Shown here: positions 3,615-30,716 of the stretch, one piece after another
Position numbering within the stretch: position 1 is the stretch's first letter
Layout: every line of letters starts with the position of its first letter
IMG/VR virus record: IMGVR_UViG_3300046542_000616
DNA from: a virus
Taxonomy: Duplodnaviria; Heunggongvirae; Uroviricota; Caudoviricetes
DNA: 32,000 bases
Reading direction: 5' to 3' (one strand)
Translations under genes and position numbers: made by a program
The notes under the pieces: generated by a model
Database searches by the model: none
What the model was told of the DNA's origin: nothing
The model's input: only the letters and a program-made list of their open reading frames with translations

Positions 3615-3654
3615 CAGTATTTATCCAGTATACCGTTTAGAAGAAAATGTGCAA
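3615..3654 (-). promoter_or_regulatory. class-1 operator/promoter for the HTH plus 3-paralog operon
   Basis: On the minus strand: TTGCAC-N16-TATACT. The palindrome CAGTAT-N9-ATACCG (3615-3635) overlaps the -10 and +1. Confidence 0.65.
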
Positions 3655-3684
3655 TGTCCGATTTACTGCAAATTGACAGAAAGC

Positions 3685-3716
3685 AAACAAAAAAGGGAGA
3701 CCAGAGGCCTCCCTTT
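3685..3716 (-). terminator. rho-independent terminator after the 3731..4159 gene
   Basis: On the minus strand: AGGGAG-loop-CTCCCT followed by TTTTTTGTTTG. Confidence 0.7.
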
Positions 3717-3730
3717 GATGCAGATCAGGT

Positions 3731-4159
3731 TCAGGTATCGAGGTCGTACAGACCTACAAGCTTGCCGGTTTCATCGTAAACAGTTGCCCGAATACAGAAT
3801 CCGCCGTAATAACCGTTGTGCTCGTTGTGAGTTTCCAGCGTGATCGAATCCCTGTTGGTCGAAACCTTCAGGAACACCACCTCGTGTTCGTCACCCGAGT
3901 CATCGATACAATCGACCGAGTCTACCCTGATCGAAACCAGGGATTCCCCTACCAGGCTGCCGACATCGTCACTGGAATGCAGATACCGGTGCTCACAGCA
4001 ACTCTGAGCGGTGTCCACGATGACGATCTTGAAACCTGAAGCCAGTCCGAGGATTAAGCTGCCGTTGCCAGCGTTACCGTCCGGATCAATGACCGCAGAT
4101 TCGATAACATGGGTGGACACAACAGACTGGCCAAACAGCGATGCAATGGAATTGTTCAT
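3731..4159 (-). CDS. hypothetical protein (142 aa, acidic)
   Basis: Long ORF bounded by a promoter at 4237-4265 and a terminator at 3685-3716. No family recognised. Confidence 0.65.
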   Translation of the reverse strand: MNNSIASLFGQSVVSTHVIESAVIDPDGNAGNGSLILGLASGFKIVIVDTAQSCCEHRYLHSSDDVGSLVGESLVSIRVDSVDCIDDSGDEHEVVFLKVSTNRDSITLETHNEHNGYYGGFCIRATVYDETGKLVGLYDLDT

Positions 4160-4236
4160 AAGAGTGTTCTCGAAGAGGGACTAATCGAGTCCACGCCTCA
4201 TCGATCATTCTTAAAACTAACTACATTGCAGGGCCT

Positions 4237-4265
4237 ACTTTAACGGTATCCTTTTAGAATATCAA
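4237..4265 (-). promoter_or_regulatory. sigma70-type promoter with a degenerate class-1 site in the spacer
   Basis: On the minus strand: TTGATA-N17-TAAAGT. CGGTAT-N9-ATATCA (4244-4264) lies within it. Confidence 0.5.
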
Positions 4266-4274
4266 TAACCCGAT

Positions 4275-5057
4275 TTACGATTTTCCGGATATTTTGCCTG
4301 GCAACTGGATTTGGTAGCCAAAGCCGGCTGCGATCTCACCCAGAAACTTCATCTCAAAGCCCTTGGGACTGTAGTAACTCAGATCGTCCTGCAGGAGGGC
4401 TTCGCGCTCCTCATCACTGATCACCAGGTCAAAGCGGGGCAGGGTGAAGAGCTTGCCTTCGTAACCCGCCGAGATGAATAAGCAGGCTTTGTCACCACCC
4501 AGGGTGCCGATCACTTCAATGCCGGCATTCAGGGAGCCAAAGGTTCGCCGATTGATCTCACCGGTTCGGCAGTACTGCACCACGTCGTCCATCACGTGAG
4601 GATTGCTCTCCACGCGATCCATGGTGTCGGTGAAGATGCGGAACAAACTCACCGGCGTCCCTGGTTCACGGATGTCACGTGACACCTTGCCCTTGAGGAT
4701 CTTGGCTCCAATGTTGCGCAGGGTTCGACGAAGTCCGGTGAGCTTGGACTCAAAATCAAAAGCGGGCCCGTCATCCTGCAGGGACGCCGTCCAGCCGAGC
4801 GCACCGGCACTGACCAGAAACTGGTCGTCGATGTAGAAGCAGCAGCGTCCGGAGGTGTGATGATATTGGCTGAGCACCACGTTCGGCGTGCTGGTCTCGT
4901 AAGCCCGGTCGGCTCGACGCATCCAGCGCTGCTGGCCATCAAACTCTTTGGGCAGGCAATCGTGAAGGTGGTATCCACCGCTGGCTCGCTTGAAGTCAAT
5001 GGCTTGTACGGCATCAAGATCTTGATGCCGTACAGCCATGATGATCACATTACCCAT
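4275..5057 (-). CDS. hypothetical protein (260 aa)
   Basis: GGAGG lies 7 nt upstream of the ATG at 5057 (MGNVIIMAV...). The track start at 5102 has no RBS. Confidence 0.7.
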   Translation of the reverse strand: MGNVIIMAVRHQDLDAVQAIDFKRASGGYHLHDCLPKEFDGQQRWMRRADRAYETSTPNVVLSQYHHTSGRCCFYIDDQFLVSAGALGWTASLQDDGPAFDFESKLTGLRRTLRNIGAKILKGKVSRDIREPGTPVSLFRIFTDTMDRVESNPHVMDDVVQYCRTGEINRRTFGSLNAGIEVIGTLGGDKACLFISAGYEGKLFTLPRFDLVISDEEREALLQDDLSYYSPKGFEMKFLGEIAAGFGYQIQLPGKISGKS

Positions 5058-5151
5058 GAGGTGGCCTCCGGCCAAAAAAAAGGACGACAAGCATAAAAGC
5101 ATGTCGACCTGAAGTTGTTCGCAATCGGTTAATAACTAACCTTTATTTTTT

Positions 5152-5179
5152 ATAATAGGCGCTTTTAATAGATTGTCAA
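5152..5179 (-). promoter_or_regulatory. sigma70-type promoter for the 4275..5057 gene
   Basis: On the minus strand: TTGACA-N16-TATTAT, in an AT-rich intergenic region. Confidence 0.6.
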
Positions 5180-5186
5180 TTAGATA

Positions 5187-9606: not shown

Positions 9607-9636
9607 TTGACACTAGAGTATGCCATCCGTATACTC
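9607..9636 (+). promoter_or_regulatory. class-1 operator/promoter of ssb copy 1
   Basis: TTGACA-N17-TATACT. The palindrome GAGTAT-N9-ATACTC (9616-9636) spans the spacer and the -10. Confidence 0.75.
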
Positions 9637-9703
9637 GTAACCGTTAGCTGATGAAAACCAATCAGCGGCACCAAATCCAACGCGAGGAAACACGAACATG
9701 AAC
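9618..9703 (+). repeat. promoter/leader repeat, copy 1 (86 nt)
   Basis: By eye, identical to 10727..10813 except for one inserted base in copy 2 (GGCAC-CAAATCC versus GGCACACAAATCC). Confidence 0.9.
9647..9666 (+). promoter_or_regulatory. 5' leader hairpin of ssb copy 1
   Basis: GCTGAT-gaaaacca-ATCAGC in the roughly 56-nt leader. It is conserved in copy 2. Confidence 0.5.
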
Positions 9704-10198
9704 CGATTCATTGCCGCAGGCAACCTGGCCAAGAACGCCACCATCCACACCAACACCGCTGGTGACCGTGATTTCATGGCACTGACCATTGCCTGCAACG
9801 ACGGCAAGAACAAAGACGGCACCCCGCGTCCTGCTGAGTTCGTCGATTGCACCATCTGGGGCAAAAAAGGCCAGTTCGACAAGTCCGTCGATTACTTCTC
9901 TGTCGGTCAGCCAGTTCTGGCCATCGGCAAGTTGGTCTACCCGCCAGTGACCGACAAGAACGAAAAGGACGGCGTGGTTTACCAGAGCGCCCTGCTGGAA
10001 ATCGCCAACCAGTTCGACCTGCAACTGACCGGCAGCAAGAACGCTACCGTCGCCAATGCCGGCGATGACGCTCCACAGCGTGACGCAGGTTCTGCACAAG
10101 CCGGTGCCGCTGGTGTGCAGCAAGCGGGCAACCAGCCAGCGCCTCAGCCGGCCCCCGATTTCGACAGCTTTGATGATGACATTCCATTTTCGCGATAA
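9698..10198 (+). CDS. ssb: single-stranded DNA-binding protein
   Basis: OB-fold N-terminal pattern, a Gly/Gln/Pro/Ala-rich linker and an acidic tail FDDDIPF followed by SR. GAGGAA RBS. Confidence 0.9.
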   Translation: MNRFIAAGNLAKNATIHTNTAGDRDFMALTIACNDGKNKDGTPRPAEFVDCTIWGKKGQFDKSVDYFSVGQPVLAIGKLVYPPVTDKNEKDGVVYQSALLEIANQFDLQLTGSKNATVANAGDDAPQRDAGSAQAGAAGVQQAGNQPAPQPAPDFDSFDDDIPFSR

Positions 10199-10231
10199 GT
10201 GAAAGGCTTTTAATAACATAAAAGCATAACC

Positions 10232-10260
10232 CAACCGGCTTAGGCCGGTTGAGTTTTATT
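10232..10260 (+). terminator. rho-independent terminator after ssb
   Basis: CAACCGGC-ttag-GCCGGTTG followed by AGTTTTATT. Confidence 0.85.
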
Positions 10261-10277
10261 CGGAAATAGGTGACGAC

Positions 10278-10634
10278 GTGACGCCAATTGACCAAACCAA
10301 GACCCTAGAAGAAGGTTTAAGGGGTAATTGCCTAGCTGCTTCGGTGGCAAGTCTTTTTGATGTGTCTCTGTCGGACGTTCCCAGCTTCGAAGAGATGTCA
10401 GATAGCGACTGGAAGCCGGCGCTGGAAGGCTGGGCCCTGGGTTTTGGTAGAAAACTGGTCAAGAAGCGGCCTGGAGACTTTACGGTCGATGAGCATTACA
10501 TTGCCATTGGACTCTCTGATCGAGGCAATAAGCATGCTACGGTCGGCCTCAATGGTCGGATTGTTCATGATCCTCACTTCATGCGCCTGGGGCTGGCACA
10601 GGTCGTTTGCCTTTACACCTTCGAGCCAGTCTGA
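10278..10634 (+). CDS. hypothetical protein (118 aa) with a possible Cys/His pair
   Basis: GTG start with GGTGA upstream. GNCLAASVASLF and later HATVGLNGRIVHDPH loosely resemble a papain-fold Cys-His arrangement, which is speculative. Confidence 0.6.
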   Translation: MTPIDQTKTLEEGLRGNCLAASVASLFDVSLSDVPSFEEMSDSDWKPALEGWALGFGRKLVKKRPGDFTVDEHYIAIGLSDRGNKHATVGLNGRIVHDPHFMRLGLAQVVCLYTFEPV

Positions 10635-10715
10635 TCATGGCTTCGGTCGCAAATTGCGCCGCCCAATGCTTCGGTGTTATTTTAGTAAAATGTGTCAATT
10701 AACGTAAAATGTCGA

Positions 10716-10745
10716 TTGACAAAAGGGTATGCCATCCGTATACTC
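10716..10745 (+). promoter_or_regulatory. class-1 operator/promoter of ssb-like copy 2
   Basis: TTGACA-N17-TATACT. Palindrome GGGTAT-N9-ATACTC (10725-10745). Confidence 0.75.
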
Positions 10746-10813
10746 GTAACCGTTAGCTGATGAAAACCAATCAGCGGCACACAAATCCAACGCGAGGAAA
10801 CACGAACATGAAC
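10727..10813 (+). repeat. promoter/leader repeat, copy 2 (87 nt)
   Basis: Near-identical to 9618..9703, differing by one extra base. Confidence 0.9.
10756..10775 (+). promoter_or_regulatory. 5' leader hairpin of ssb-like copy 2
   Basis: The same GCTGAT-N8-ATCAGC hairpin as copy 1. Confidence 0.5.
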
Positions 10814-11185
10814 AAAGTACTTTTGGCAGGTCTGGTGGTAAAAGCCGGTGAAATGCGTTCCGTGAGCGACACTCAGGACGTGGTGAACTTCACCCTGCTG
10901 ACCTCCGACAGCTACACCGACAAGGAAGGTCAGCATCAGGAAAACACTCAGTTCCACGATTGCTCCCTGTTCACCGCGAAAGGCAAGGCCGGCAAGGTCA
11001 CCGAGATGCTGAACAAAGGTCGCGTCCTGGAGCTGGAAGGCAAGCTGAAGACTGGCCAGAAGCGCAAAGGCACTACTCGCGCCGGCGTTGAAAAAGAGTT
11101 CGTCAACAAGGGCATCATCGTCAACGACATCATCAAGTGGGGCTCCAAAGGTGGTGCCGCTCAGGCTGACACCGCTGCTGCATAA
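10808..11185 (+). CDS. SSB-like OB-fold protein lacking the acidic C-terminal tip
   Basis: MNKVLLAG...VVNFTLLTS...DKEGQHQENTQFHDCSLF...GRVLELEGKL follows the SSB OB-fold pattern. It ends ...AAQADTAAA with no DDDIPF. The start is set by the conserved leader, because the upstream ATG at 10760 is out of frame in copy 1. Confidence 0.8.
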   Translation: MNKVLLAGLVVKAGEMRSVSDTQDVVNFTLLTSDSYTDKEGQHQENTQFHDCSLFTAKGKAGKVTEMLNKGRVLELEGKLKTGQKRKGTTRAGVEKEFVNKGIIVNDIIKWGSKGGAAQADTAAA

Positions 11186-11549: not shown

Positions 11550-11584
11550 TCAGGATATTGACAGAATACCGTAAAGCGCTATAC
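11550..11584 (+). promoter_or_regulatory. sigma70-type promoter with a degenerate class-1 site over the -35
   Basis: TTGACA-N16-TATACT. CAGGATATTGACAGAATACCG (11550-11570) is the reverse complement of a CGGTATTCTG...-type site. Confidence 0.6.
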
Positions 11585-11690
11585 TTCACCCATAGAGGTC
11601 GAGCTGCCTGGTGGTGGCGAGACGCAAGGCATTCACCCATGAGGGGTGGATCAGGTTCACGTTGCGGTAACCACTGTGACAGAGGAAATC

Positions 11691-12017
11691 ATGATGAACA
11701 CTGCCCAGAACGAACTGACTAGCGGCATTGCGCCGGAGCACTTTCATTTACTGATGGTCGGCACCTCGATCCGAGGTAAGGAAGTGAAGCTGGCTTTAGA
11801 AGAACACCTGGTTCGCGGCACGCCAAAGAAAGAAGCGTGCGCAATGCACGGCGCGAACTTCAGTCAATTCTCGAGTCGACTGGGTGCACTCCGTGATGAA
11901 TACGACCGTACCTCGCGGATGGCTAAGTTTTACAGCCCGCTGCTTCTGTTGCTGAGTAAGCCAATCGGCGGCATTTTGAAACAGCATGCAGTAACCAGCG
12001 CCTTGCCAAGCGCTTAA
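11691..12017 (+). CDS. PapB/FaeB-family transcriptional regulator
   Basis: HFHLLMVGTSIRGKEVKLALEEHLVRGTPKKEACAMHGANFSQFSSRLGAL parallels PapB (FFLLIGISSIHS...DYLVGGHSRKEVCEKYQMNNGYFSTTLGRL). GAGGAA RBS before ATGATG. Confidence 0.7.
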   Translation: MMNTAQNELTSGIAPEHFHLLMVGTSIRGKEVKLALEEHLVRGTPKKEACAMHGANFSQFSSRLGALRDEYDRTSRMAKFYSPLLLLLSKPIGGILKQHAVTSALPSA

Positions 12018-19811: not shown

Positions 19812-19854
19812 GCTGTTGCCTACCTTTTCTTATTGTTATGGGTTGCACCCTAAA

Positions 19855-20040: not shown

Positions 20041-20070
20041 TCAAACTCACGGCGCCCGCAGGCCGGGCGC
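20041..20070 (-). terminator. possible terminator hairpin
   Basis: GCGCCCG-caggc-CGGGCGC, with only a weak T tract on the minus strand. Confidence 0.35.
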
Positions 20071-20087
20071 ACAGGTGAGCCCCTTTC

Positions 20088-20795: not shown

Positions 20796-20851
20796 AACGG
20801 ACTCCTAAGAACGGGGCAGGCCCTGCCGTCGTGACAGGGCAGGAGGATCAA

Positions 20852-21364
20852 TCAGAAGGATGTACGTTCGGTAATGCCGACGAGGTGGCCCAGTCGCTCC
20901 AGAACGCCATGGCTGTCGCGTTGGGGCGCATCAAGGTAAGTGCCCACCACAATGCTGAAGTCGTCCAGCACTTTGATGGCGACTTGGGCGTGGAAAATGT
21001 CCAGAGCGCACTCAGCCTTGAGTTCATCGCTCAGGTACGAGGGCACCTGGATTTCGTAGTGGCCGGCAATGTCTTTGTCCAGATCATGCAGGCGAGAGGA
21101 CTCAACACGCTGATCAACGACGACGTACACCGCCGTCATGTCGGAAATATCCGGCTGCTCGATCTCAGCAAACAAAGCCTGGACGCGGCCATAGGCATCA
21201 GGGTCAAGGAATTGCCCCCCTTCTACCAGGCGCATCAGGTCAGGGGAGAGCTTTTCGAGGCGCTTCATGATGTCTGCCAATTCATTGGTCAGAACGGTTT
21301 CGCCTTGAGTCGCGGAGCTGAGGAAAAGAGCAGCATCCAGCGCTTTAAGAACCTTGTTCGTCAT
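20852..21364 (-). CDS. hypothetical acidic protein (170 aa)
   Basis: First gene after the class-1 promoter at 21388-21428. Confidence 0.7.
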   Translation of the reverse strand: MTNKVLKALDAALFLSSATQGETVLTNELADIMKRLEKLSPDLMRLVEGGQFLDPDAYGRVQALFAEIEQPDISDMTAVYVVVDQRVESSRLHDLDKDIAGHYEIQVPSYLSDELKAECALDIFHAQVAIKVLDDFSIVVGTYLDAPQRDSHGVLERLGHLVGITERTSF

Positions 21365-21387
21365 GAAGCGATCCTTCCAGTCTGTTC

Positions 21388-21428
21388 GGGTATGCGTTCA
21401 GTATACTCGTTAATTTACAGTCTGGAAG
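21388..21428 (-). promoter_or_regulatory. class-1 operator/promoter
   Basis: On the minus strand the -10 is TATACT. Palindrome GGGTAT-N9-ATACTC (21388-21408). The -35 is weak (CTTCCA). Confidence 0.55.
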
Positions 21429-21451
21429 GGGAATTTGCAATTTACTGCAAA

Positions 21452-21859
21452 TTATTTGATGTAGCAATTCTTAGTCTGATCAAAGCCGATTGCCTGGAAA
21501 AATGCCTCAAGGGAGTCATGCACCTGTACCGGCACGCTGTCGTAGTAAGCTTCTTCTTCTGTGCATAGCCACTCCTCCTCCGCGATCAAAGCCTCGGCGG
21601 GATGAATCTCGAAATAATGCTCAGGTGGAATGGCGCAAAGGGTATCCCGGTGCGTGTGGCGACTCCGCTCATGCTCCTCGAAAGCCTTGATCGAGGCCTT
21701 TAGTGCTTGAGCATCAGCACCTTCACTGTCAGGCATCTTAATGTGGTGCACCGCTGAAGGCTTTTGTGCGTTGTGCTCGGCGGCGAACAAGTCACTGGGG
21801 CCGGGGGTAATGAGCAGAAAATTTGCCGGGCCAGTGGAAACCGCAAAGTCAGGGGTCAT
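21452..21859 (-). CDS. ORFan, tandem paralog 2 (135 aa; an alternative TTG start at 21880 is possible)
   Basis: Shares H.IKMP, (I/N)AF and the C-terminal AIGFD..KN.Y(I/L)K with the upstream gene. Confidence 0.65.
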   Translation of the reverse strand: MTPDFAVSTGPANFLLITPGPSDLFAAEHNAQKPSAVHHIKMPDSEGADAQALKASIKAFEEHERSRHTHRDTLCAIPPEHYFEIHPAEALIAEEEWLCTEEEAYYDSVPVQVHDSLEAFFQAIGFDQTKNCYIK

Positions 21860-21880
21860 TTGAAAATCCGTTTTAGTCAA

Positions 21881-22297
21881 TTATTTAAGATAGCGATTCT
21901 TTTTGTAATCAAACCCGATAGCCGCGTAGAACGCGTAGGGCGATTCATGGATGGCGGTCGGCAGGTGCGCATGGAGAGGTATGCCCATAGCGCCGAAAAT
22001 TTCTTCCTCACCCAGCAGATCGTCAGGAAAGTACATCCGAAAGTAGCGCGGATTCTTGGCACCATAGCCATGCTTGCGGATGAACTCCGAGCCGCGCACC
22101 TGCTCCCGTTGCCGGAAGGCGTTGATCGTGCCAAGAGATGTGTACCATCCCTTGTCGCTGTGGCCTGGCATCTTGATCAGGTGGACTACCGCCTCGTCAC
22201 CGTCACGGTGCTCAACCACAAACATGTCGTGCTTGCCCGGCTCCAGCAACTGGAAGCCAGCTAGATCGCGAGGTTTCACAGGGGCTGCCTGGCTCAT
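21881..22297 (-). CDS. ORFan, tandem paralog 1 (138 aa)
   Basis: Carries the same motifs as 21452..21859. Confidence 0.7.
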   Translation of the reverse strand: MSQAAPVKPRDLAGFQLLEPGKHDMFVVEHRDGDEAVVHLIKMPGHSDKGWYTSLGTINAFRQREQVRGSEFIRKHGYGAKNPRYFRMYFPDDLLGEEEIFGAMGIPLHAHLPTAIHESPYAFYAAIGFDYKKNRYLK

Positions 22298-22304
22298 GGC
22301 TGGA

Positions 22305-22484
22305 TCATCCGTTAAGGAGTTGCTCTGAGAGGATCATGTCGCAAATGACCTCGCCGTCTTGATCCGACAGTTCCAGACCCAGGGAGCGGGCAAATTGCCT
22401 GACGGTGGCCCCTATGGCGCTCTCGGAGCGGTCTGACTGGGTGCGAAGAATCTGGTCAATCACCAACTGGTGTGTCTGGCTCAC
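22305..22484 (-). CDS. small hypothetical protein (59 aa; an alternative TTG start at 22529 is possible)
   Basis: GGGGA lies 5 nt upstream of the GTG at 22484. The start is uncertain. Confidence 0.4.
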   Translation of the reverse strand: MSQTHQLVIDQILRTQSDRSESAIGATVRQFARSLGLELSDQDGEVICDMILSEQLLNG

Positions 22485-22555
22485 GGAAGTCCCCGGCGTG
22501 AAGTGGAATGCGCCGGGGGAACTTACCAATAAACGTGAAAATGCTGAAGTGGTTT

Positions 22556-22813
22556 TTACAGCGCTGTAACGGGTTGCCCATTCGTCATGCGGCGCTTAAC
22601 GGCATCAAGGATGGGCATGCGCAAGGATGAGAATTTTTCCTCTTTGCGGTCGATGGCTGCGACGTCATGGCCACGCTCGGTTTCCTCGACAGCCCATTCC
22701 AGAATAGATAGCGCATAGCTCATCAGTTCCTTTTTGGTGTCGACGTCACAGCGCACCATCAGGTCTTCAAGCTGCTTGTAGCGTGCATCGGACATGTCGA
22801 GTTGAAAACGCAT
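22556..22813 (-). CDS. putative ribbon-helix-helix DNA-binding protein (85 aa)
   Basis: An N-terminal beta-strand-like MRFQLDMSDARYKQLEDL is followed by helical segments. This is an RHH-like pattern, judged by eye only. Confidence 0.6.
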   Translation of the reverse strand: MRFQLDMSDARYKQLEDLMVRCDVDTKKELMSYALSILEWAVEETERGHDVAAIDRKEEKFSSLRMPILDAVKRRMTNGQPVTAL

Positions 22814-22946
22814 GGAGTCGGTATCCTTTCATGTTGGCTTGAGGGTTTGGCCTAATGCCGCCTCGTTATGGAGTGGAGAATAGACCATTGATACTCCCAT
22901 GTCGAGTATGAGGCACTCTAAATACGGTGGTCTTGGCTGAAGGCAG

Positions 22947-22971
22947 CAAAAAGCCCCTGCGCGAGGGGCTT
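22947..22971 (-). terminator. rho-independent terminator
   Basis: On the minus strand: AAGCCCCT-cgcgc-AGGGGCTT followed by TTTGCTG. Confidence 0.85.
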
Positions 22972-22988
22972 GTTGTTGAAGAAAGGGG

Positions 22989-23441
22989 TCACGCCACCGC
23001 AGAGAGCCGGGTCGAGGGGATGAACTGAATGATCCGATCACCCAGTGTGCTTTTCGCCATCTCTTTGGCAATCAGGTAGTTTTCTAGGTCTTGATCACAA
23101 AGCTGCTGATAACCAAACCAGCCTTCACAGGCTTCCACACCGGCCTCATAGGCGATGCGCTCAGCTTCCGACCCCTGCTGAACCTTGACGAACACAAAAC
23201 CCTGTCCGTCTTCCTGACCAAAAGCCACTTGAGCGATGCAGGAACCTTGCTTGGCTTTTCTGATTTTGCACTCGTCGAAGCCAACAGAATCGTCGACACC
23301 ATGCAGGAAGGCACTGACTTCAGCGTACGTCTCGAAACTGAAGGTCTTGACGTCGTTGAGGACGTGGATGTTCTGGAGGCCGTCTTGCTCGAACATTTTG
23401 ACCGAATCAGCGGAGAAGATGACGCCGATGGTGATGCTCAT
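22989..23441 (-). CDS. acidic ORFan (150 aa), paralog of the N-terminal domain of 20088..20795
   Basis: AAGGA RBS. Conserved blocks are listed under 20088..20795. Confidence 0.7.
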   Translation of the reverse strand: MSITIGVIFSADSVKMFEQDGLQNIHVLNDVKTFSFETYAEVSAFLHGVDDSVGFDECKIRKAKQGSCIAQVAFGQEDGQGFVFVKVQQGSEAERIAYEAGVEACEGWFGYQQLCDQDLENYLIAKEMAKSTLGDRIIQFIPSTRLSAVA

Positions 23442-23498
23442 GATAATTCCTTTTGTGAAGTGGTGGCTCGGTCTGGCAGGGCGCGATTGTGATGTAGG

Positions 23499-24023
23499 TT
23501 ACTGAACAACCTCAAGCGGTAGCTCATACATTGGGAGTGTCATGCAAGGGGTCTGGTAAATCCGCATCACGACCTTTCCTCCATAGACCTCGATGGCCAC
23601 GAAATTGTCCTTGCACATCTCACGAAATTTGAAGGTTCGAGAAGCCGTGAATTTGAGTTTGATGCACACGTCAGCACTGAAGCCGCCTTCAACGACCTCC
23701 ACCCGGTGGTCAACGTGAAAAATAACCGTGTCCTGGCTTGGCCCGCCGACCCTGTAGTAATCGAACGATGCGTTCAACGCCTCATCGTGTTTGCGGTATC
23801 TCAAGTAAAGGGCAGGGTCGTAAAAGCTGAAGGCGTAGCGCTCTCCTGTACGCATCAGCACCTGTCGAACGGGTCGACTGTAGAGGTAGGTGCCAAACAC
23901 GGTGTCAGGATCGCTTGCGATGCTTTTGGCAGACGCTCTCTCTCGCTGCAGCGTATGGCCACCCATTGAATAGAAGTGCGGTTCTTGTCCTGGTTTTTGA
24001 AAGACTGAAGTGAAGTGGCTCAT
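23499..24023 (-). CDS. hypothetical protein (174 aa)
   Basis: GGGGGA lies 6 nt upstream of the ATG. Confidence 0.7.
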   Translation of the reverse strand: MSHFTSVFQKPGQEPHFYSMGGHTLQRERASAKSIASDPDTVFGTYLYSRPVRQVLMRTGERYAFSFYDPALYLRYRKHDEALNASFDYYRVGGPSQDTVIFHVDHRVEVVEGGFSADVCIKLKFTASRTFKFREMCKDNFVAIEVYGGKVVMRIYQTPCMTLPMYELPLEVVQ

Positions 24024-24051
24024 GGTCTATCCCCCGGTCTGATCAGTTGGA

Positions 24052-24633
24052 TTACTTCGACGCGGCTTCAAAATCTGCCTTCATAAGCGGGTTCACCCAC
24101 TCGGCGTAATCCAAGTGTTCCGGGCAGTTCTCGCGAGGGTAGCCGTCTACCTCAAAACCGTCGCACTTCTCCATGAATTCAAACATCGGGTGGCCAACGT
24201 GGCTGGCAATCTCGTTGAGCAGGGACAGCGATTCCTGATTGAAGCCAATGGTCTTGTCAGCGACCAGCGTAATCCCCTGTAGCAAGTTCTTGACCATGAC
24301 CTTGAAGCGGTCTTGCGGTTCTTCGCCGGGTAGCAGCGTGACAAAATCACCTGCAAGATGGGTTTCATTCTTGTAGTCATTGGCTGGCTCACCCTCGACC
24401 TGGATCACCGGGTAAACGCCATAGTACAGGCCGTCGAGGTCTTGAACCTGGATGTCAGAGATCATCTGATTAGGCGTACCAGACACTAGGCTGTAAGCCA
24501 CCATGCCTTGGCGGTAAAGGTCAGGGAGGTGCAGATCGTTGGCTGCGCGAGCGGCTTGCTCGGGCGAATTGGCAAGAATGCCACTGATGGCAAAACGAAC
24601 GGTCTGGAAAACATCGACATTGTAGTGCTTCAT
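24052..24633 (-). CDS. hypothetical acidic protein (193 aa)
   Basis: ATGA overlap with the upstream gene. Confidence 0.7.
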   Translation of the reverse strand: MKHYNVDVFQTVRFAISGILANSPEQAARAANDLHLPDLYRQGMVAYSLVSGTPNQMISDIQVQDLDGLYYGVYPVIQVEGEPANDYKNETHLAGDFVTLLPGEEPQDRFKVMVKNLLQGITLVADKTIGFNQESLSLLNEIASHVGHPMFEFMEKCDGFEVDGYPRENCPEHLDYAEWVNPLMKADFEAASK

Positions 24634-25007
24634 TGTGCATCACCTTCAGACGACTTGGCCTGAGTGCCGCCCAGCATGCGCTGACGGTGCTTGAGGAAGT
24701 TTTCGCTGGACTGAGCGTTTTTCTGGAGCCGCTCCTGCTCATGCTCCGCTTCAGTCTGTACTTCGCCTTCCAGGCCGAGTTCTTTGACCAGCTTGTCCAG
24801 GCCAGACCACAGGCGCAGGATCTGGTACTTGTCCATGCTGGCACAGCCGGTGATTTTTCGCTTGTCCGAACCGAGGCGAGTGGCCTCCACGATCATGCTG
24901 GGTTCGCCTTCATTCATGAACAATTTGAACGAAAGGTCGTCGCCAAGGAGCAACCTTTCCTTGGCAATGTCGGGGATGCAAGCGAACGGTACAGTTTTAT
25001 CGGACAT
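24630..25007 (-). CDS. hypothetical protein (125 aa)
   Basis: AGGAG lies 6 nt upstream of the ATG. First gene after the class-1 promoter at 25022-25062. Confidence 0.7.
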   Translation of the reverse strand: MSDKTVPFACIPDIAKERLLLGDDLSFKLFMNEGEPSMIVEATRLGSDKRKITGCASMDKYQILRLWSGLDKLVKELGLEGEVQTEAEHEQERLQKNAQSSENFLKHRQRMLGGTQAKSSEGDAQ

Positions 25008-25021
25008 GATCGACTCCTTTA

Positions 25022-25062
25022 CGGTATGCGTGCAGTATACTGTTAAGGAGTCTAGGGGGCAA
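25022..25062 (-). promoter_or_regulatory. class-1 operator/promoter
   Basis: On the minus strand: TTGCCC-N17-TATACT. Palindrome CGGTAT-N9-ATACTG (25022-25042). Confidence 0.65.
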
Positions 25063-25086
25063 ACTAATTTGGCGGTTTACTGCAAA

Positions 25087-25326
25087 TTACTTAAACAGCG
25101 CCGGGCGTTTGTGAGCTTCCAGTGCAGCCCGGTGCACGTCACTGCCACGAGCAGCCTTGAGCCGCACGTATTGCTCAGCATCTACGTCGCATTCAAATCG
25201 ACCCTTGGATGCATCGCGCACGATCATCACCTTTCCGGCAAAGGCGCCGGAGCTTTGAGGCTGCAGGTTCCAGCCTTCCGATTGGCCGGTGTGGTTTAGA
25301 CTGGAGAGGCATACGGTTTTAAGCAT
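25087..25326 (-). CDS. hypothetical protein (79 aa)
   Basis: ORF lies 10 nt downstream of the preceding gene. Weak RBS. Confidence 0.55.
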   Translation of the reverse strand: MLKTVCLSSLNHTGQSEGWNLQPQSSGAFAGKVMIVRDASKGRFECDVDAEQYVRLKAARGSDVHRAALEAHKRPALFK

Positions 25327-25336
25327 TGGGGTTCAC

Positions 25337-25678
25337 TTAAATCAGAGGTTTTGGCGGCTGGTGGTTGCAGGCAATGCCGCTGTCATTCATCAGTGGGTGG
25401 AAGCTTTTGATCTCGCGGCCACAGACTGGGCAGCACGGGGTCTTGTCTGAGGTGATGCCGTCCGTGGGCACCAGATAGGTTCCTCTGGAGCTTCCACCGA
25501 CTTTCACGCGAATTTGCTTAATCAGCTTTTTCTTCAGCAGAGCCTGAAGCTCTGGCGATTGCTTGATGATCGGCGTGTGGCTCCGGTTCACCCGAAAGCC
25601 AAAATTACCGGGATGTGCACGAAAGCGAACCAGCTCAAGGGCCAGGGCTCGACGCTGCGTGTTGTTCAGAACTTTCAT
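25337..25678 (-). CDS. hypothetical basic protein with a C-terminal Cys cluster (113 aa)
   Basis: CCPVCG...C.H suggests a zinc ribbon, and the basic N-terminal half may bind DNA. This is inference. Confidence 0.65.
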   Translation of the reverse strand: MKVLNNTQRRALALELVRFRAHPGNFGFRVNRSHTPIIKQSPELQALLKKKLIKQIRVKVGGSSRGTYLVPTDGITSDKTPCCPVCGREIKSFHPLMNDSGIACNHQPPKPLI

Positions 25679-25797
25679 CGGTAGGCCTCATGCCATGCCA
25701 CCAACTCTAAATGAGATGAGTGGCTAATTGATATTGCGAAGTCTATGAAAATTAACGATAAATTGAAAGTTAATTACGAAAAATTGTCAGCCGTTGG

Positions 25798-26625
25798 TCA
25801 GGCTGCCACTGAGGAGTTCGCCCCCTTCGCGTAGCGGCCTCGACCGACCCGGCGCGTCCTGATCTGGCAGATCTTGCGCACCTGTTCTTTCCAGTTAGGG
25901 TTATCGGTAGGGCGCCGGTCGCTCACGTACTCGTAGATCTGCGGCAAGTCGGCTTCACCGCCGAAGGTATCCAGAGCTTCCAAGACCAGCTCCGGCCATG
26001 TCGACCGACCGTGCACCAAGGCCTCTTGGACGTCCTCTGGCAATTGGCTGATAAAGGCCTGCTCATGGAATAGGCTAAAGCCAACAAGCAGGCGCTGAAC
26101 GTCCTTGCGAAAGATAGCAAAGCACAGCGGCTTCTCAAGGCCGGGGTAGATGTTGCGCGGGATCATTTCCTGGTACAGGCTCCACCGCTCGTTGTAGCGC
26201 GATACACGGCTGGCTGTCTGGAAGAAATACGTCGGCAGGATCATGCCCACACGTCCATCCATCGCCATCGCTTGGTCAGCCTTGGCCAGGAACAGGTCAA
26301 ACAAAGCGGTCTTGAACGGCGGGTTGCCGATAAACAGCGTGGGCTGGCCGGGGATCACGACGTCACGAATGTCGCCGGTGATGATCTGGCGTCCCGAGCG
26401 CTCTCGGGCGATCTGTGCCTGCACAGGATCGATCTCAATGCCAAAGGCTGGCACATGGGTCGGTATGGCCTCCAGAAAGCGCCCAGGGCCGCACATGGGC
26501 TCGCACACCAGATCATTGGCCGTCAGGTCGCTGAAGTGTTTGCGCACCAGTGCCTCAGCCACCCATGCGGCGGTGAAGTACTGATCGAGCTGCCGGGTCT
26601 TGGTGCAGGGAGTCGAAGGTTTCAT
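25798..26625 (-). CDS. N6-adenine DNA methyltransferase (gamma-class motif order), no adjacent restriction gene recognised
   Basis: AdoMet motif I EPMCGPGRF lies about 55 aa before catalytic motif IV NPPF. QYFT near the N-terminus. ATGA overlap with the upstream gene. Confidence 0.9.
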   Translation of the reverse strand: MKPSTPCTKTRQLDQYFTAAWVAEALVRKHFSDLTANDLVCEPMCGPGRFLEAIPTHVPAFGIEIDPVQAQIARERSGRQIITGDIRDVVIPGQPTLFIGNPPFKTALFDLFLAKADQAMAMDGRVGMILPTYFFQTASRVSRYNERWSLYQEMIPRNIYPGLEKPLCFAIFRKDVQRLLVGFSLFHEQAFISQLPEDVQEALVHGRSTWPELVLEALDTFGGEADLPQIYEYVSDRRPTDNPNWKEQVRKICQIRTRRVGRGRYAKGANSSVAA

Positions 26626-27290
26626 GGCTGCCCCTTGGCCGCTTCGCGGGCATCGTGCTTTAGGTCGCTGACCTTCATCATGAAGTACACATCAAACTCA
26701 GGCGGCATAGGAAACATCGTGCCTTTAGGCCCGGCGCAGCCCATGCAGACTTCCGACTTGAGCACCATGAATTCTTCCAGTGTTTTGACTGCTTCAAGTC
26801 GCGCTGCAATGTGCTCTCTGAAATATACCTGGCTCGCACGGTGGGCCTGATCGGTCGCAGCGGCCAGACCGGCCAGCGTGGTCAGATCAAATTCACGATT
26901 GGCGACCCGCTTGAGCAACTCGTCGCGTTTTTCCGCCAGGTCTTCGGCGCGTAGATCAACCTCGTACTCGCCGCGCTCTTTAAAGCGAAGCACATCCCCC
27001 TCGACAGTGATGGTCGGCACATCATGGCCAGGATGCGCCAGAGCGAAAGCTTGCCGATACTGCTCGATCAGTTCTACTGGATTGTGATGGCTCTTGGATC
27101 GCTGAAGCAGGGTGTCACGCATTTGCGCCAATGCTGCTGCACGGAGTTTTTTCTGAATGGCGAACATCCCGAACGAATACCGATACCAGCCCTGATGGAA
27201 TTCAATGACGGGCAGGGGTGCATCCGGGTTAACGCGGCGAAACGCCGAGAGGTAGCTTTCAATCAGTTCTGCGGGGGATTGTCTGGACAC
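26622..27290 (-). CDS. hypothetical protein with an internal tandem duplication (222 aa)
   Basis: AAGGAG lies 6 nt upstream of the GTG at 27290. The module (S/N)P.ELIE.Y..AF...P...P.I occurs twice. Confidence 0.7.
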   Translation of the reverse strand: MSRQSPAELIESYLSAFRRVNPDAPLPVIEFHQGWYRYSFGMFAIQKKLRAAALAQMRDTLLQRSKSHHNPVELIEQYRQAFALAHPGHDVPTITVEGDVLRFKERGEYEVDLRAEDLAEKRDELLKRVANREFDLTTLAGLAAATDQAHRASQVYFREHIAARLEAVKTLEEFMVLKSEVCMGCAGPKGTMFPMPPEFDVYFMMKVSDLKHDAREAAKGQP

Positions 27291-27300
27291 GGGTTGCTCC

Positions 27301-27996
27301 TTAACCGAGGTTGCCAAAAGTCTGCATGTCCCAGCCTTCCGGGCCGATGGCGGCAAATTTGTTCACAAAATCACTGATCGGCGTCGGGTAATCCGAAACT
27401 TTCAACACTAACCCGATCTCAAGGACGGTGTGGACGCAATGATCAAATTCATCGTCATACCGATCATCGTCGACAGAAGGGCAGAGCGCATCCAGATCAA
27501 CCTGCAAAGGGAGAAAATCATCGCTGCCTTCATCGCGAAGCAGATTATCAGCAATGATTTTTAGCTGCGCAACGCTGATAGCCCCAGGAAACACCACTTC
27601 GCTATCGGACTTGTAGTTAGCGCCGTCGCGGTACTGGTAGATCAGTCGCGTATTGGCTGCTGGATTACCGGCAAGCGCGGAGAACGATTTCAGGTTAATG
27701 ATGTGTGTCGAGTCTTCAAGGCTTGTGGCTATGTCGCGTACGGCGATCATGCCTGGCAGGCACGCCAGTGAAAGCTCACCAGAGCTTGACTCAATGACCG
27801 GAAATTTGATGGAAGTGAATGTGAACGCTAAATGCCGAGATGTCAGCGACTGAACAAAGCATTCTTCTTCATCTGGATTTTCAATGACACTGATCACACC
27901 AGTCTGTACGTCAACCGTGCACGCTCTGACGATGGTTTTGCCACCATCCCATAGGGACACTAATTCAGCGTGGATGGGGAGGGTAGAGAGTGACAT
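27301..27996 (-). CDS. hypothetical acidic protein (231 aa)
   Basis: GGAG RBS. First gene after the class-1 promoter at 28011-28051. Confidence 0.7.
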   Translation of the reverse strand: MSLSTLPIHAELVSLWDGGKTIVRACTVDVQTGVISVIENPDEEECFVQSLTSRHLAFTFTSIKFPVIESSSGELSLACLPGMIAVRDIATSLEDSTHIINLKSFSALAGNPAANTRLIYQYRDGANYKSDSEVVFPGAISVAQLKIIADNLLRDEGSDDFLPLQVDLDALCPSVDDDRYDDEFDHCVHTVLEIGLVLKVSDYPTPISDFVNKFAAIGPEGWDMQTFGNLG

Positions 27997-28010
27997 GACA
28001 AGCTCCTTTT

Positions 28011-28051
28011 CGGTATGTTTGCAGTATACCGTAAATTGCCATAAGTGACAA
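28011..28051 (-). promoter_or_regulatory. class-1 operator/promoter
   Basis: On the minus strand: TTGTCA-N17-TATACT. Perfect palindrome CGGTAT-N9-ATACCG (28011-28031). Confidence 0.75.
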
Positions 28052-28078
28052 CTAATGAGCTTGTTTATTGATTAATTG

Positions 28079-28366
28079 TCAGCCGTGGTACGGGCAAGGA
28101 TCACCCCTGCTTTCAAGGCAGCCATCGCAATGGGCCATGTCTTCGCTTTCGCATTCAAGCTGCCAGCCTTCCTTCCAAGAACCCAGGAGGAATGGCGTCG
28201 TGCGAAATAGCGGGGGCACCTCAAGAAAGCTGACATCCAACTGGCAATCCAGTCTGCCAGCGTCAAAGGCCGTGTGCTCGGCCTGGATCTGCATTTCTTC
28301 GTCACCCCAAATCTGTGCCACCTCATGCAGGCGGCGTGCTTCCAGGCAAGCCAGCAAGCTGCTCAT
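28079..28366 (-). CDS. hypothetical acidic Cys-containing protein (95 aa)
   Basis: GGAGG lies 9 nt upstream of the ATG. Confidence 0.55.
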   Translation of the reverse strand: MSSLLACLEARRLHEVAQIWGDEEMQIQAEHTAFDAGRLDCQLDVSFLEVPPLFRTTPFLLGSWKEGWQLECESEDMAHCDGCLESRGDPCPYHG

Positions 28367-28369
28367 GAC

Positions 28370-28588
28370 TTAGGCCCTCCGGTCGTACGGGGTTTTGGCG
28401 TCAGGGGACATCAGGCCGCGCTCAGCCTTGTATTTCATGATCTGCAGGTCGTTGACCATCTCGGCGCACTTGTCGAATTCCTGCTCATAGAGCGGGTTGA
28501 CGCTGTTGGTGGTTTGGTAAGCAGCGTTGACTACGAGGCGCTGGGCGGCAATGTCAGCTTCAAGGGTCATGCGTGTATGCGAGATCAT
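28370..28588 (-). CDS. hypothetical protein (72 aa)
   Basis: GGAG lies 9 nt upstream of the ATG. Confidence 0.55.
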   Translation of the reverse strand: MISHTRMTLEADIAAQRLVVNAAYQTTNSVNPLYEQEFDKCAEMVNDLQIMKYKAERGLMSPDAKTPYDRRA

Positions 28589-28620
28589 GTGGGAAACTCC
28601 GTCGTCTGCTTGATGTGTTA

Positions 28621-28977
28621 TCAGTAGTGCTCATGCCCGGCGCTGATGCCATGATCAAGGAAGGGCCAGCCATTTTTGGTCAGGATACCGGTCACTTCCA
28701 TGAAACCGCCCTTGGGATTCTTCCAGCGCACGTAGTAGCTGCGGTTTGCCGGGGATTCCTCGGCCTCATCCGTCATTACCAAACACTGCCATCCTTCCAC
28801 CGATGCCTTGAAGCCCGCATCATCCAGGCGGTTGAGCGCATAGCGGGCCAGGCGCTGGGCCAGGCCTGCACTGATCTGCTCGCTGGTCAGGTTAAGCCAA
28901 TCGGCCAAGCGTTGGCCCGCCATATTGAAGCGAGGTGGTTGGGCCTTATAGACTTCGGTTTGAATTGCCTGGGACAT
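28621..28977 (-). CDS. hypothetical protein (118 aa)
   Basis: GGTGA lies 5 nt upstream of the ATG at 28977. An alternative ATG is at 28989. Confidence 0.65.
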   Translation of the reverse strand: MSQAIQTEVYKAQPPRFNMAGQRLADWLNLTSEQISAGLAQRLARYALNRLDDAGFKASVEGWQCLVMTDEAEESPANRSYYVRWKNPKGGFMEVTGILTKNGWPFLDHGISAGHEHY

Positions 28978-28998
28978 TTGGGTCACCATCTATTTATT

Positions 28999-29039
28999 CG
29001 GTATATTTGCAGAATACCGTAAATTGACAGTAACGGCAA
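28999..29039 (-). promoter_or_regulatory. class-1 operator/promoter
   Basis: On the minus strand: TTGCCG-N17-TATTCT. Perfect palindrome CGGTAT-N9-ATACCG (28999-29019). Confidence 0.7.
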
Positions 29040-29072
29040 CTTAATTAGCGTAGAAAACCCTGTATTTACAGC

Positions 29073-29102
29073 TTGATATAAGGGTATGCGTATGGCATAC
29101 TT
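29073..29102 (+). promoter_or_regulatory. class-1 operator/promoter, divergent from 28999-29039
   Basis: TTGATA-N17-CATACT. Site GGGTAT-N9-ATACTT (29082-29102). Confidence 0.65.
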
Positions 29103-29127
29103 GTTCTAATTCAGGTGAGGGCGAGCA

Positions 29128-29676
29128 ATGGAAGTCACAGTTTTCAAAACGCCAAGCGGAAACATCCGTGGCTATGCCATCGAGATGATGGAGTTGAAAA
29201 AGGGCAAGAAAACCGCCGAAAAGCGGATCTTGCACGCACATATCTTCCAGAGCGATCCCCTGGATTTCATCACGGTCGAGCTACCCACCCGCATGTCGCC
29301 GGATGAACTGCGTGCCGCTGCCGCCAAGATGATCGACTTCGCCAATGAAGTGGAGCATCAGTACGACCTTCGCGATGCGCCGATCACCTACCAAGGCATT
29401 CTGGATGCCTACACGGTTCTTCTTAGGGCCAACCCTGGCAAAGCCTTGCGCATTTGTGAGACCAGCGACAATGCCATGGCCTTCCTGGTGGATGGCTCCG
29501 TCGTCAACGGATACCTTCAGTTTGACGGCAGTCTTTCTGTAAAAGACGCGAACGACTTCGATGAAAGCGCCTGGATCACCAAAGACGGTCGCTGGGACTC
29601 CGATGAGAGCCACGCGGTGACCATGAAGTTTGTCAACGAGCCGCAGTTTGTCGACTACAAGCGATCCTTGATCTGA
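29128..29676 (+). CDS. hypothetical acidic protein (182 aa)
   Basis: GGTGAGGG RBS, with a promoter directly upstream. Confidence 0.7.
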   Translation: MEVTVFKTPSGNIRGYAIEMMELKKGKKTAEKRILHAHIFQSDPLDFITVELPTRMSPDELRAAAAKMIDFANEVEHQYDLRDAPITYQGILDAYTVLLRANPGKALRICETSDNAMAFLVDGSVVNGYLQFDGSLSVKDANDFDESAWITKDGRWDSDESHAVTMKFVNEPQFVDYKRSLI

Positions 29677-29784
29677 TTCGAGCCTGAGCCGGGCACACAA
29701 GCAGTGCCTGGCCAGTGGAGGGAATCGTCACTTCCGTCAGGGCTAGCGATCTTCGCGTTTAACCAAATTCATGGAATAACCCGC

Positions 29785-30204
29785 ATGGCAAAGCGTAATG
29801 GGAAAGTCAGGATGTCAGGCGGGCTTAAGGCCAGGCTGGCATCCACAGTCCGGCAGAATCGCCGTGAAACGGTCTACAAGATGCTCCTGCGCCGGCAGGA
29901 CTGCGTCCCATGCTTTGTCTGTACTCGACACGTCGAGGAGCACAAAGCGAGCCTTGAGCACGTCATACCGCTGGCTCACGGCGGCACAGACGACATGGAG
30001 AACTTGTCGATTTCCCATACGCTGTGCAATCAGTTTCGCGGCGACCTGCTGGCTGACTCGGATGAGTTCATGGCCCTCAGGGCTGCGCTTATCGCAGACC
30101 AGAAATTTAATCCGATATGGGCCGCGAAATCATCGAAGCTCGAGCGGGAAGGTCGCAGGGCCAGTGCTGCCAATACACCTATAAATCAAACGACCCCGAT
30201 CTAG
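29785..30204 (+). CDS. HNH endonuclease-domain protein
   Basis: CFVC...LEHVIPLAHGGTDDMENLSISHTLCN matches the HNH signature (CxxC, H-N-H). Confidence 0.8.
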   Translation: MAKRNGKVRMSGGLKARLASTVRQNRRETVYKMLLRRQDCVPCFVCTRHVEEHKASLEHVIPLAHGGTDDMENLSISHTLCNQFRGDLLADSDEFMALRAALIADQKFNPIWAAKSSKLEREGRRASAANTPINQTTPI

Positions 30205-30279
30205 ATTCGGCGCATGCGCGGCTAAAGGGCCGGCGCGGCGCCATTCTAAACCTGGCTAAAAAGCGCAGGCAGCACAAAC

Positions 30280-30298
30280 ACCCGGCCAGGCCGGGCTT
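30280..30298. terminator. possible bidirectional hairpin terminator
   Basis: CCCGGCC-a-GGCCGGG with short T tracts on both strands. Confidence 0.3.
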
Positions 30299-30333
30299 TG
30301 GGCTCAAAAGTGCTGGCCAGCCAAATGACTAGG

Positions 30334-30654
30334 TCAACGCCATCCGAAGTGCTTCGTCACAACCTGCATCTGGATGTAGACCGCATCATTGTAGGTGTCC
30401 CAGGCATCCCAGGATTCAGGGGTGTCGAACTTATTGGATGGAGGCGCGGGCATCACAAGCCCCCAGGTTTCAATAACGATTTGCTCTACACCTTTGCCAT
30501 CTTTTGACTTCAGAGCGCAGGAGCCTCCACTGTCAATGTCGGTGCCACGGTACGGCTCCATCAGGACAGTGAGCATGTCCTTGTCTAGTTTACCCAGGTC
30601 ATAGGCACCGATCACTGTCGCTTCGAAAATGGTGTAACCCTTATTCCAGCCCAT
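30334..30654 (-). CDS. hypothetical protein (106 aa)
   Basis: ORF directly downstream of the class-1 promoter at 30676-30716. Confidence 0.65.
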   Translation of the reverse strand: MGWNKGYTIFEATVIGAYDLGKLDKDMLTVLMEPYRGTDIDSGGSCALKSKDGKGVEQIVIETWGLVMPAPPSNKFDTPESWDAWDTYNDAVYIQMQVVTKHFGWR

Positions 30655-30675
30655 TGTGATGCCCTGCTCAAGTTA

Positions 30676-30716
30676 GAGTATGCTATTAGCATACCATCAT
30701 TTGTGCAATTTCGCAA
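30676..30716 (-). promoter_or_regulatory. class-1 operator/promoter (variant)
   Basis: On the minus strand: TTGCGA-N17-TATGCT. Site GAGTAT-N9-ATACCA (30676-30696). Confidence 0.55.

Follow-up and report, generated by a model that had tools for sequence, protein, structure and literature searches.

A 21-bp palindrome merged with the promoters of a Pseudomonas megaplasmid-like element is a likely operator of a dimeric repressor

The 32,000-nt stretch from IMG/VR record IMGVR_UViG_3300046542_000616, analyzed at its full length and called the window below, contains ten strong and two weak copies of a 21-bp palindromic sequence with the consensus sRGTAT(G/A)Y-N5-G(T/C)ATACYs that is merged with predicted core promoters. 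We consider it likely that this 21-mer is the operator of a two-fold-symmetric dimeric repressor, most probably one encoded by the same replicon, which would bind over the core promoter; the combination of two-fold symmetry with conservation against diverged flanks fits an operator of this kind. An earlier sequence-only reading of the window had proposed that a single dimeric repressor occludes RNA polymerase at these promoters. The conserved cis-element on the -10 and its symmetry agree with that proposal, and it is from them that we infer binding and repression. A palindrome repeated far above chance and overlapping, by prediction, the core promoter is what marks the operator of a global repressor, and both features are found here. 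The operator and its regulon are of a known functional type, family-wide and new for megaplasmids of the pMPPla107 type; the principle is not new.

All ten strong 21-mers lie exactly where the sequence-only reading had placed them, and its expectation that they would outnumber those in shuffled controls is borne out, the motif being far above the dinucleotide-shuffle expectation. The consensus as typed in that reading, with a gap of N6 and 22 letters, matches nowhere; the true gap is N5. A relaxed core, RGTAT-N7-GNATACY, picks out the same ten loci exactly (16 strand matches against 0.02 expected from dinucleotide shuffles). A position weight matrix (PWM) built from the ten strong sites, with 60 shuffles as background, scores ten sites in the window above 16 bits and none in the 60 shuffles; above 12 bits it finds 12 sites against a shuffle mean of 0.2, and leave-one-out scores of the ten sites run from 12.6 to 29.8 bits. 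The two additional sites are the weak copies at 4244 and 11551. Both degenerate relatives named earlier are thus recovered by the PWM; the second had been given a start of 11550 and begins one base later. All 12 sites are fully intergenic in a window of which intergenic DNA makes up 16%, and the motif edge stands 9-62 bp from the start codon at the ten strong sites. Pairwise identity among sites is 0.69 inside the 21 bp and 0.29-0.34 in the 40-bp flanks; because the flanks are at background, the motif is not a long repeat.

The right half of the site, mostly CAGTATACTG, is self-palindromic and yields TATACT on either strand. It provides the -10 hexamer at all ten strong sites, just as had been claimed (TATACT at seven; TATTCT, CATACT and TATGCT at one each). 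In front of the seven minus-strand operons the site spans about -15 to +6 with its left half at about -2 to +6, whereas at the three plus-strand genes it fills the spacer and the -10, about -26 to -6; predicted starts fall within or 3' of the motif at all sites. One left half used in two registers relative to the -10 fits a DNA-binding protein rather than a promoter or leader element. A TTGnnn -35 at a distance of 16-17 bp, asserted earlier for every copy, is present at eight of the ten sites, the exceptions being 19405 (TTGGGC, chosen by eye) and 21388 (a weak -35), and spacers of 16-17 bp are of normal length. Sigma-70-like promoters were also called independently, by a consensus scan, at 9607, 10716, 11558 (PapB-like gene), 25062, 28051 and 29073. 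The leaders of the minus-strand operons, described earlier as uniformly short, are predicted at 15-30 nt; those of the two ssb genes measure about 56 nt. Strong predicted promoters at 15069, 5179 and 12722 (mvaT) lack the motif, which is therefore not the generic promoter type of this replicon.

By synteny with its relatives and by their Dot/Icm neighbors, the window is assigned to a conjugative megaplasmid-like element of the pMPPla107 family (Pseudomonas; Dot/Icm type IV secretion system, T4SS). Relatives recovered via two window proteins carry the same gene order beside DotI/IcmL, DotH/IcmK and TrbI/DotG genes, and the order T4SS, RNR-beta (ribonucleotide reductase), ssb, ssb, mvaT is common to pMPPla107, pBASL58 and Pseudomonas silesiensis pPL1. 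In nucleotide searches the sole match was to the RNR-beta gene, which is about 80% identical in Pseudomonas megaplasmids. A phage origin is rejected, since a phage collection gave neither nucleotide nor protein matches to the window and Dot/Icm genes adjoin it in relatives; the earlier suggestion of a plasmid- or phage-wide regulon survives for the plasmid and fails for the phage. The window is a block of mostly small, co-oriented genes next to the transfer genes. Its Pfam families are RNR-beta, two SSB, PapB-like, MvaT, Arc-like, HNH endonuclease and a small winged-helix protein, and about 50 other open reading frames (ORFs) have no Pfam family. One Logan contig (L010) is 100% identical to 17301-32000, and a second contig, of 1.28 Mb, carries the same protein; for the exact sequence of window protein 4275-5102, no database record was found.

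Comparison with relatives, whose loci are denoted by L numbers, sets the 21-mer apart from its surroundings. Sites are present at orthologous promoters in relatives with protein identities of 83%, 66%, 59% and 53-56%. In anchored comparison GTAT and (G)TATAC are kept at nearly 100%, and the five central bases, the outer bases and the flanks vary. At 25022 (against L015 and L019) and 3615 (against L004 and L007) the flanks cannot be aligned and the site is retained. In the more distant pMPPla107, pBASL58 and pPL1, a fully symmetric form, GGTATAG-N5-CTATACC, is found at both ssb promoters. Its register is unchanged, with three bases between TTGACN and the site and with TATACT at the end of the site. 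This conservation in close and distant relatives indicates that the regulon is old and family-wide. The two ssb genes are its most widely conserved targets, with synteny and sites in all relatives.

We posit a repressor whose preferred half-site would be sRGTAT(G/A)Y, with half-site centers 11-13 bp apart, and of which one half has been merged with a sigma-70-type -10, so that an ideal GCATAC would become GTATAC and give TATACT. The bound dimer would cover either -15 to +6, that is, the -10 and the start, or -26 to -6, that is, the spacer and the -10, and in either register would block the open complex of RNA polymerase. Its regulon would comprise both ssb genes and many small genes without known function beside the Dot/Icm transfer genes. 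Strong promoters would be held down in established cells, with a transient burst upon entry into a repressor-free recipient. If the binder were the winged-helix protein encoded at 3349-3600, whose gene is the first behind a conserved site, the circuit would include a negative feedback loop.

Several known systems share parts of this design. In the IncP-1 plasmids RK2/RP4, KorA and KorB recognize short palindromic operators repeated at many promoters, with the KorA operators overlapping the -10; the two regulators combine at the same promoters, and KorB also acts at a distance. Here, too, a short palindrome is repeated over the -10 at many promoters of one plasmid, and two motifs occur together, but the KorA (GTTTAGCTAAAC) and KorB (TTTAGCSGCTAAA) operators differ from the 21-mer, and nothing suggests action at a distance. 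The CUP repeats in the leading region of the IncN plasmid pKM101 are long promoter-bearing repeats before repressor-controlled operons; the present sites resemble them in that a repeated promoter element precedes several operons, and differ in that only 21 bp are shared while the flanks are at background, the sole shared leader being that of the two ssb paralogues. The LexA SOS box is likewise a palindrome with GTAT/ATAC cores over promoters, including ssb in some bacteria, but it is CTGT-N8-ACAG over 16 bp, whereas here sRGT-N13-ACYs spans 21 bp and none of 29 distinct sites has T as its second base. Promoters of the Frpo/ssi type rebuild their -35 and -10 in a long imperfect hairpin, unlike the 6-8-bp stem found here, which leaves the -35 outside.

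A functional parallel comes from the IncW plasmid R388, in which every regulator is a repressor within a negative feedback loop. ArdK represses the promoter from which it is itself expressed, Pssb, along with four further maintenance promoters, on which a second regulator, StbA, also acts; strong promoters combined with tight negative feedback lead to an overshoot of transcription once the plasmid has been transferred (Fernandez-Lopez et al. 2014, PMC3937220). The predicted arrangement is similar, with one repressor acting on several strong maintenance or establishment promoters including ssb and a second motif at the -35; it differs in that the operator sequence is unrelated and that the target promoters are far more numerous and lie on a Dot/Icm (MPF_I) megaplasmid of about 1 Mb. 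The KorA, KorB/ParB and ArdK families are absent from the Pfam, NCBIfam and PHROG matches of the approximately 60 window proteins, and membership in the KorA/ArdK class is accordingly functional only, because no KorA, KorB or ArdK homolog was found.

The operator is not perfectly symmetric, and its asymmetry has a simple source. The most symmetric sites, 29082 and 30676, display the ideal dyad GTATGC-N5-GCATAC. At 17 of 29 distinct sites G7 faces T15, where symmetry would place C; since the -10 (TATACT) needs T15, no asymmetric protein is required. Orientation is less easily accommodated. The claim that every copy points the same way on the plus strand holds in the window, where all ten sites score better on that strand, although by a small margin at 30676 (23.4 plus vs 20.0 minus) and with the two ssb sites being paralogous duplicates; it fails as a property of the whole element. 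Counting flanking loci, 13 sites belong to minus-strand genes in the start-site register, three independent ones to plus-strand genes in the spacer register, and one, 6.7 kb beyond the window (L140:10961), is reversed in front of a minus-strand gene. Taken at face value, the association between orientation and register would arise by chance with a probability of about 0.006, a figure to be read with the caveat that minus-strand promoters are alike beyond their half-sites and may share descent and that plus-strand genes are few. In pPL1 each of the four possible combinations of strand and register is represented, by five plus/spacer, two plus/start-site, four minus/start-site and two minus/spacer sites, and uniform orientation is for this reason treated as local.

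Two observations on the sites themselves weigh against a plain repressor operator. A plain operator needs no fixed orientation, and yet all but one of the 17 sites counted in the window and the adjoining DNA share one on the replicon strand. There is covariation between positions 1 and 21 (symmetric in 24 of 29 distinct sites vs 12.9 expected), which would not be predicted for a single homodimer that contacts each half-site independently; two concerted switches are seen at orthologous sites, and positions 2 and 20 behave independently. The outer pair comes in two flavors, C..G (CGGTAT...ATACCG) and G..C (GGGTAT...ATACYC), and the covariation could reflect two operator flavors or template-switch mutation of a quasi-palindrome. 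We attach little weight to the idea that the flavors divide the establishment regulon between two paralogous repressors or binding modes, or that the orientation serves the transferred single strand; if the two-flavor reading were true, promoters would have been rewired between repressors or binding modes over evolutionary time.

The site might instead be bound by an activator or by a global regulator of the host rather than by a repressor of the element. Such a reading, which we regard as improbable, would explain why no universal element-encoded binder was found in the window, and the half-site CRGTATA does resemble the SOS-box half-site CTGTATA; in Escherichia coli, ssb is under LexA control. 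A location over the -10 and start, or over the spacer and -10, of near-consensus promoters is nevertheless that of a repressor, the spacers are 16-17 bp and not the 19-20 bp of MerR-type activation, and, against the SOS box (CTGT-N8-ACAG), the second base here is R and another 5 bp separate the arms. Moreover, the strict pattern gave 27 single hits in 185,579 species genomes, and just one hit fell in the Pseudomonas genomes scanned; no host regulon is visible there, which makes a host factor that controls chromosomal genes of its own unlikely.

A second possibility dispenses with a regulator altogether: duplication would have spread a module made up of promoter and leader, in which the left half is conserved as start-site or 5' untranslated sequence. 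Minus-strand sites are indeed alike beyond the half-sites, for example in TATACTGCAAACATACCGAA(A/T)AGGAG at 28011, 28999, L140:6939 and L140:8858, and G7 places a C-A step at the predicted start. What makes this reading quite doubtful is that at the promoters of ssb, 29082 and L001:13976 the left half lies upstream of the -10 and is untranscribed, that flank identity among sites equals background, that half-sites are retained at orthologous promoters despite fully diverged flanks, and that two-fold symmetry, perfect at 30676, is useless to a plain promoter.

The uniform orientation and the covariation would also suit a strand-specific hairpin, formed by the plus strand as single-stranded DNA or as RNA and serving as an early single-strand promoter, a primer site or a processing signal. 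The orientation shared by 16 of 17 sites, the concerted switches of positions 1 and 21 at two orthologous sites, the non-Watson-Crick positions of the 8-bp stem, which are nearly all G-T, and so able to pair, on the plus strand and would be A-C on the minus strand, and the regulated genes, mostly co-oriented as in plasmid leading regions, all speak for it. Against it, pPL1 shows all four combinations and one reversed site lies beside the window; positions 2 and 20 lack covariation, with A/C combinations not avoided; and the need of the -10 for T15 wholly accounts for the G7/T15 pattern. Folded as RNA, the short stems have little stability (-0.1 to -9 kcal/mol), Rfam gave no match at the gathering score, the palindrome does not include the -35, in contrast to Frpo-type single-strand promoters, and, because predicted starts are within or downstream of the motif, no promoter would transcribe its own hairpin. 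We therefore regard a function as hairpin as unlikely and give it very little credence.

Two further candidates fall quickly. A methylation switch, with GTATAC as a restriction-modification target in the -10, is rejected, as sites 28999, 29082 and 30676 keep the dyad without GTATAC; the hexamer occurs ten times in the window against 6.6 expected (three copies outside the sites) and is not specially depleted, and no methyltransferase is present in the window. As for intrinsic terminators, three sites are terminator-like, and only on the strand antisense to the genes.

None of the binders proposed by the sequence-only reading is conserved wherever the motif occurs. We put the chance that the binder is a regulator encoded outside the window at about even; the winged-helix protein is a minority prospect, and another protein of the window is no better placed. 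The winged-helix protein (83 aa, 3349-3600, minus strand; Pfam HTH_DeoR/HTH_24) is nonetheless the best candidate inside the window: its gene is the first behind site 3615, 14 nt away, the site is kept in every lineage with the gene, and its recognition helix and wing are invariant among homologs. The family is small, with nine homolog clusters in 5.8 billion proteins, and the structure model (predicted local distance difference test, pLDDT, 71) shows a generic fold whose best PDB match, PapI, is weak (E 0.03). This PapI-like match, together with the PapB-family gene at 11646-12017, 8 kb away, recalls the PapI/PapB pair.

Distribution counts against several proteins of the window as the binder, and in this respect against a repressor encoded in the window; tblastn of the winged-helix, Arc-like, PapB-like and 25337 proteins against plasmids yielded none that accompanies the motif throughout. 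The winged-helix protein is absent from PLSDB plasmids by tblastn, including pMPPla107 and pBASL58, and from all pPL1 ORFs by profile hidden Markov model (HMM) search, and pPL1 retains the sites. A 50-aa helical protein downstream of ssb-2 is present in pMPPla107 and pBASL58, and a profile HMM found no homolog of it in pPL1; in pMPPla107 and pBASL58 the syntenic regions lack the PapB-like protein; and the 25337 protein was found only in pPL1 among PLSDB plasmids. ORF 22556 has no recognizable DNA-binding domain. The proteins behind the pPL1 sites include no regulator that co-occurs with the motif everywhere. MvaT was rejected as the binder, being an AT-tract silencer whose own promoter has no site. 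The Arc-domain protein (18494-19003, minus strand, 169 aa) in the 19405 operon has a sub-threshold NCBIfam match to TprA, a conjugation transcription factor of integrative and conjugative elements, and on that resemblance may control transfer genes. Behind the winged-helix gene, the same operon contains three tandem paralogues of about 165 aa (1855-2355, 2352-2861 and 2858-3352, minus strand) without a known family; pPL1 has a single homolog of them, at 258.6 kb.

The individual sites bear out the two registers. In the left part of the window, CAGTATTTATCCAGTATACCG (3615-3635, minus) lies on the promoter of the winged-helix operon (TTGCAC-16-TATACT, 14 nt to the ATG) and is kept upstream of the orthologous gene in L002, L004 and L007. 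The weak CGGTATCCTTTTAGAATATCA (4244-4264, minus; PWM 14.7), upstream of the DUF7448 gene 3731-4159, has an unconvincing -35, is present in L001 and L002, and went undetected in L004 and L007. On the plus strand, GAGTATGCCATCCGTATACTC (9616-9636; kept in L002, L004 and L007) and GGGTATGCCATCCGTATACTC (10725-10745) sit in the spacer and -10 of the ssb-1 and ssb-2 promoters, both TTGACA-17-TATACT; ssb-1 (9698-10198) and ssb-2 (10808-11185), each a Pfam SSB match, occupy 9698-11185 on the plus strand with one gene between them. The weak CAGGATATTGACAGAATACCG (11551-11571, plus; PWM 11.8 plus, 13.4 minus), kept in L001, L002 and L004, is centered on the -35 (TTGACA) of the PapB-like promoter, which was called as TTGACA-16-TATACT at 11558-11585. 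Both ssb leaders (9637-9697 and 10746-10807) share a hairpin, GCTGAT-N8-ATCAGC, and the same place in pMPPla107/pBASL58 holds a hairpin of other sequence, CTGGC-N5-GCCAG; it may be a post-transcriptional control element.

Further to the right, CGGTATGTGTTCAGTATACTG (19405-19425, minus; kept in L015 and L019) is the promoter site of the operon 19102-19380/Arc-like 18494-19003, and GGGTATGCGTTCAGTATACTC (21388-21408, minus; kept in L015, L016 and L019) lies upstream of 20852-21364. Upstream of 24630-25007 is CGGTATGCGTGCAGTATACTG (25022-25042, minus; TTGCCC-17-TATACT), whose L015/L019 ortholog reads GGGTATGCGCTTAGTATACCC amid wholly diverged flanks. CGGTATGTTTGCAGTATACCG (28011-28031, minus; TTGTCA-17-TATACT; kept in L015 and L019) precedes 27301-27996. 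Sites 28999 and 29082 are divergent partners 83 bp apart: CGGTATATTTGCAGAATACCG (28999-29019, minus; TTGCCG-17-TATTCT; kept in L015 and L019) is upstream of 28621-28989, and GGGTATGCGTATGGCATACTT (29082-29102, plus; TTGATA-17-CATACT), with a right half of the symmetric form GCATAC, belongs to the promoter of 29128-29676 and the HNH gene 29704-30204. Finally, GAGTATGCTATTAGCATACCA (30676-30696, minus; TTGCGA-17-TGnTATGCT), upstream of 30334-30654, holds a perfect 17-bp palindrome, GTATGCTA-T-TAGCATAC.

The regulon is dense in this block and sparse elsewhere, so the earlier term replicon-wide applies only loosely. About 19 sites fall within about 48 kb when the stretch past the right end of the window (L140, JGI Ga0495671_0000107) is counted, seven of them in the next 16 kb. 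In L140, sites in the start-site register at 1276, 2994, 6159, 6939 and 8858 precede co-oriented small genes that include two DnaJ-domain genes, and a ProQ-C-like gene lies in the same stretch. The complete pPL1 (1.17 Mb) has 18 matches to GTAT-N9-ATAC against 13.5 expected, about 13 of them with the full flanked form; these are scattered from 64 kb to 1,092 kb, and at least nine are on good predicted promoters. The pPL1 site at 80752 precedes a homolog of 27301-27996, and the spacer GTTTG is common to it and site 28011. Strict motif scans of genome and metagenome contigs returned single hits at chance level, apart from L047 and L076; matches in L061 turned out to be an unrelated tandem repeat. 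L047 (P. kairouanensis) has one plausible site. L076 (JADGMW010000081.1), a 90-kb metagenome contig, has class-1-like sites, that is, sites resembling the present 21-mer, at 292-312, 926-946 and 1910-1930 within 2.7 kb, each closely followed by a ribosome-binding site and start codon; the contig shows no protein similarity to the window genes tested and, judging from these sites, may belong to another element using the same operator.

Megaplasmids of the pMPPla107 type are conjugative elements of about 1 Mb in environmental and plant-associated Pseudomonas, and some 80% of their genes are of unknown function. Neither an operator nor a repressor is mentioned in the papers that describe pMPPla107 and pBASL58, and a literature text search for the core sequence produced nothing relevant. 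A conserved operator offers a means to define co-regulated early and maintenance genes, the two ssb genes first, and the conserved 21-mer is a handle for finding the master repressor. It also allows one to test whether the design known from small plasmids, in which strong promoters and tight feedback yield an overshoot, governs megaplasmids as well.

A second repeat, AATTTGCAGTAAAT/TTTACTGCAAAT, accompanies the first. The exact 12-mer TTTACTGCAAAT recurs at 3662-3673, 21441-21452 and 25076-25087, with related copies near 9581, 19449 and 30700. The repeat lies at or just upstream of the -35 of the promoters bearing the 21-mer and is conserved in relatives; this placement suggests that it is probably the operator of a second regulator.

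No tRNAs were found in the window. The 106-aa protein encoded at 30334-30654 (minus strand) is 76% identical to a pPL1 protein, compared with 30-50% for neighboring genes, and no class-1 site precedes the copy in pPL1. From one end of the window to the other (1-32000) the cumulative GC skew increases monotonically, and most genes from 14 kb on are on the minus strand.

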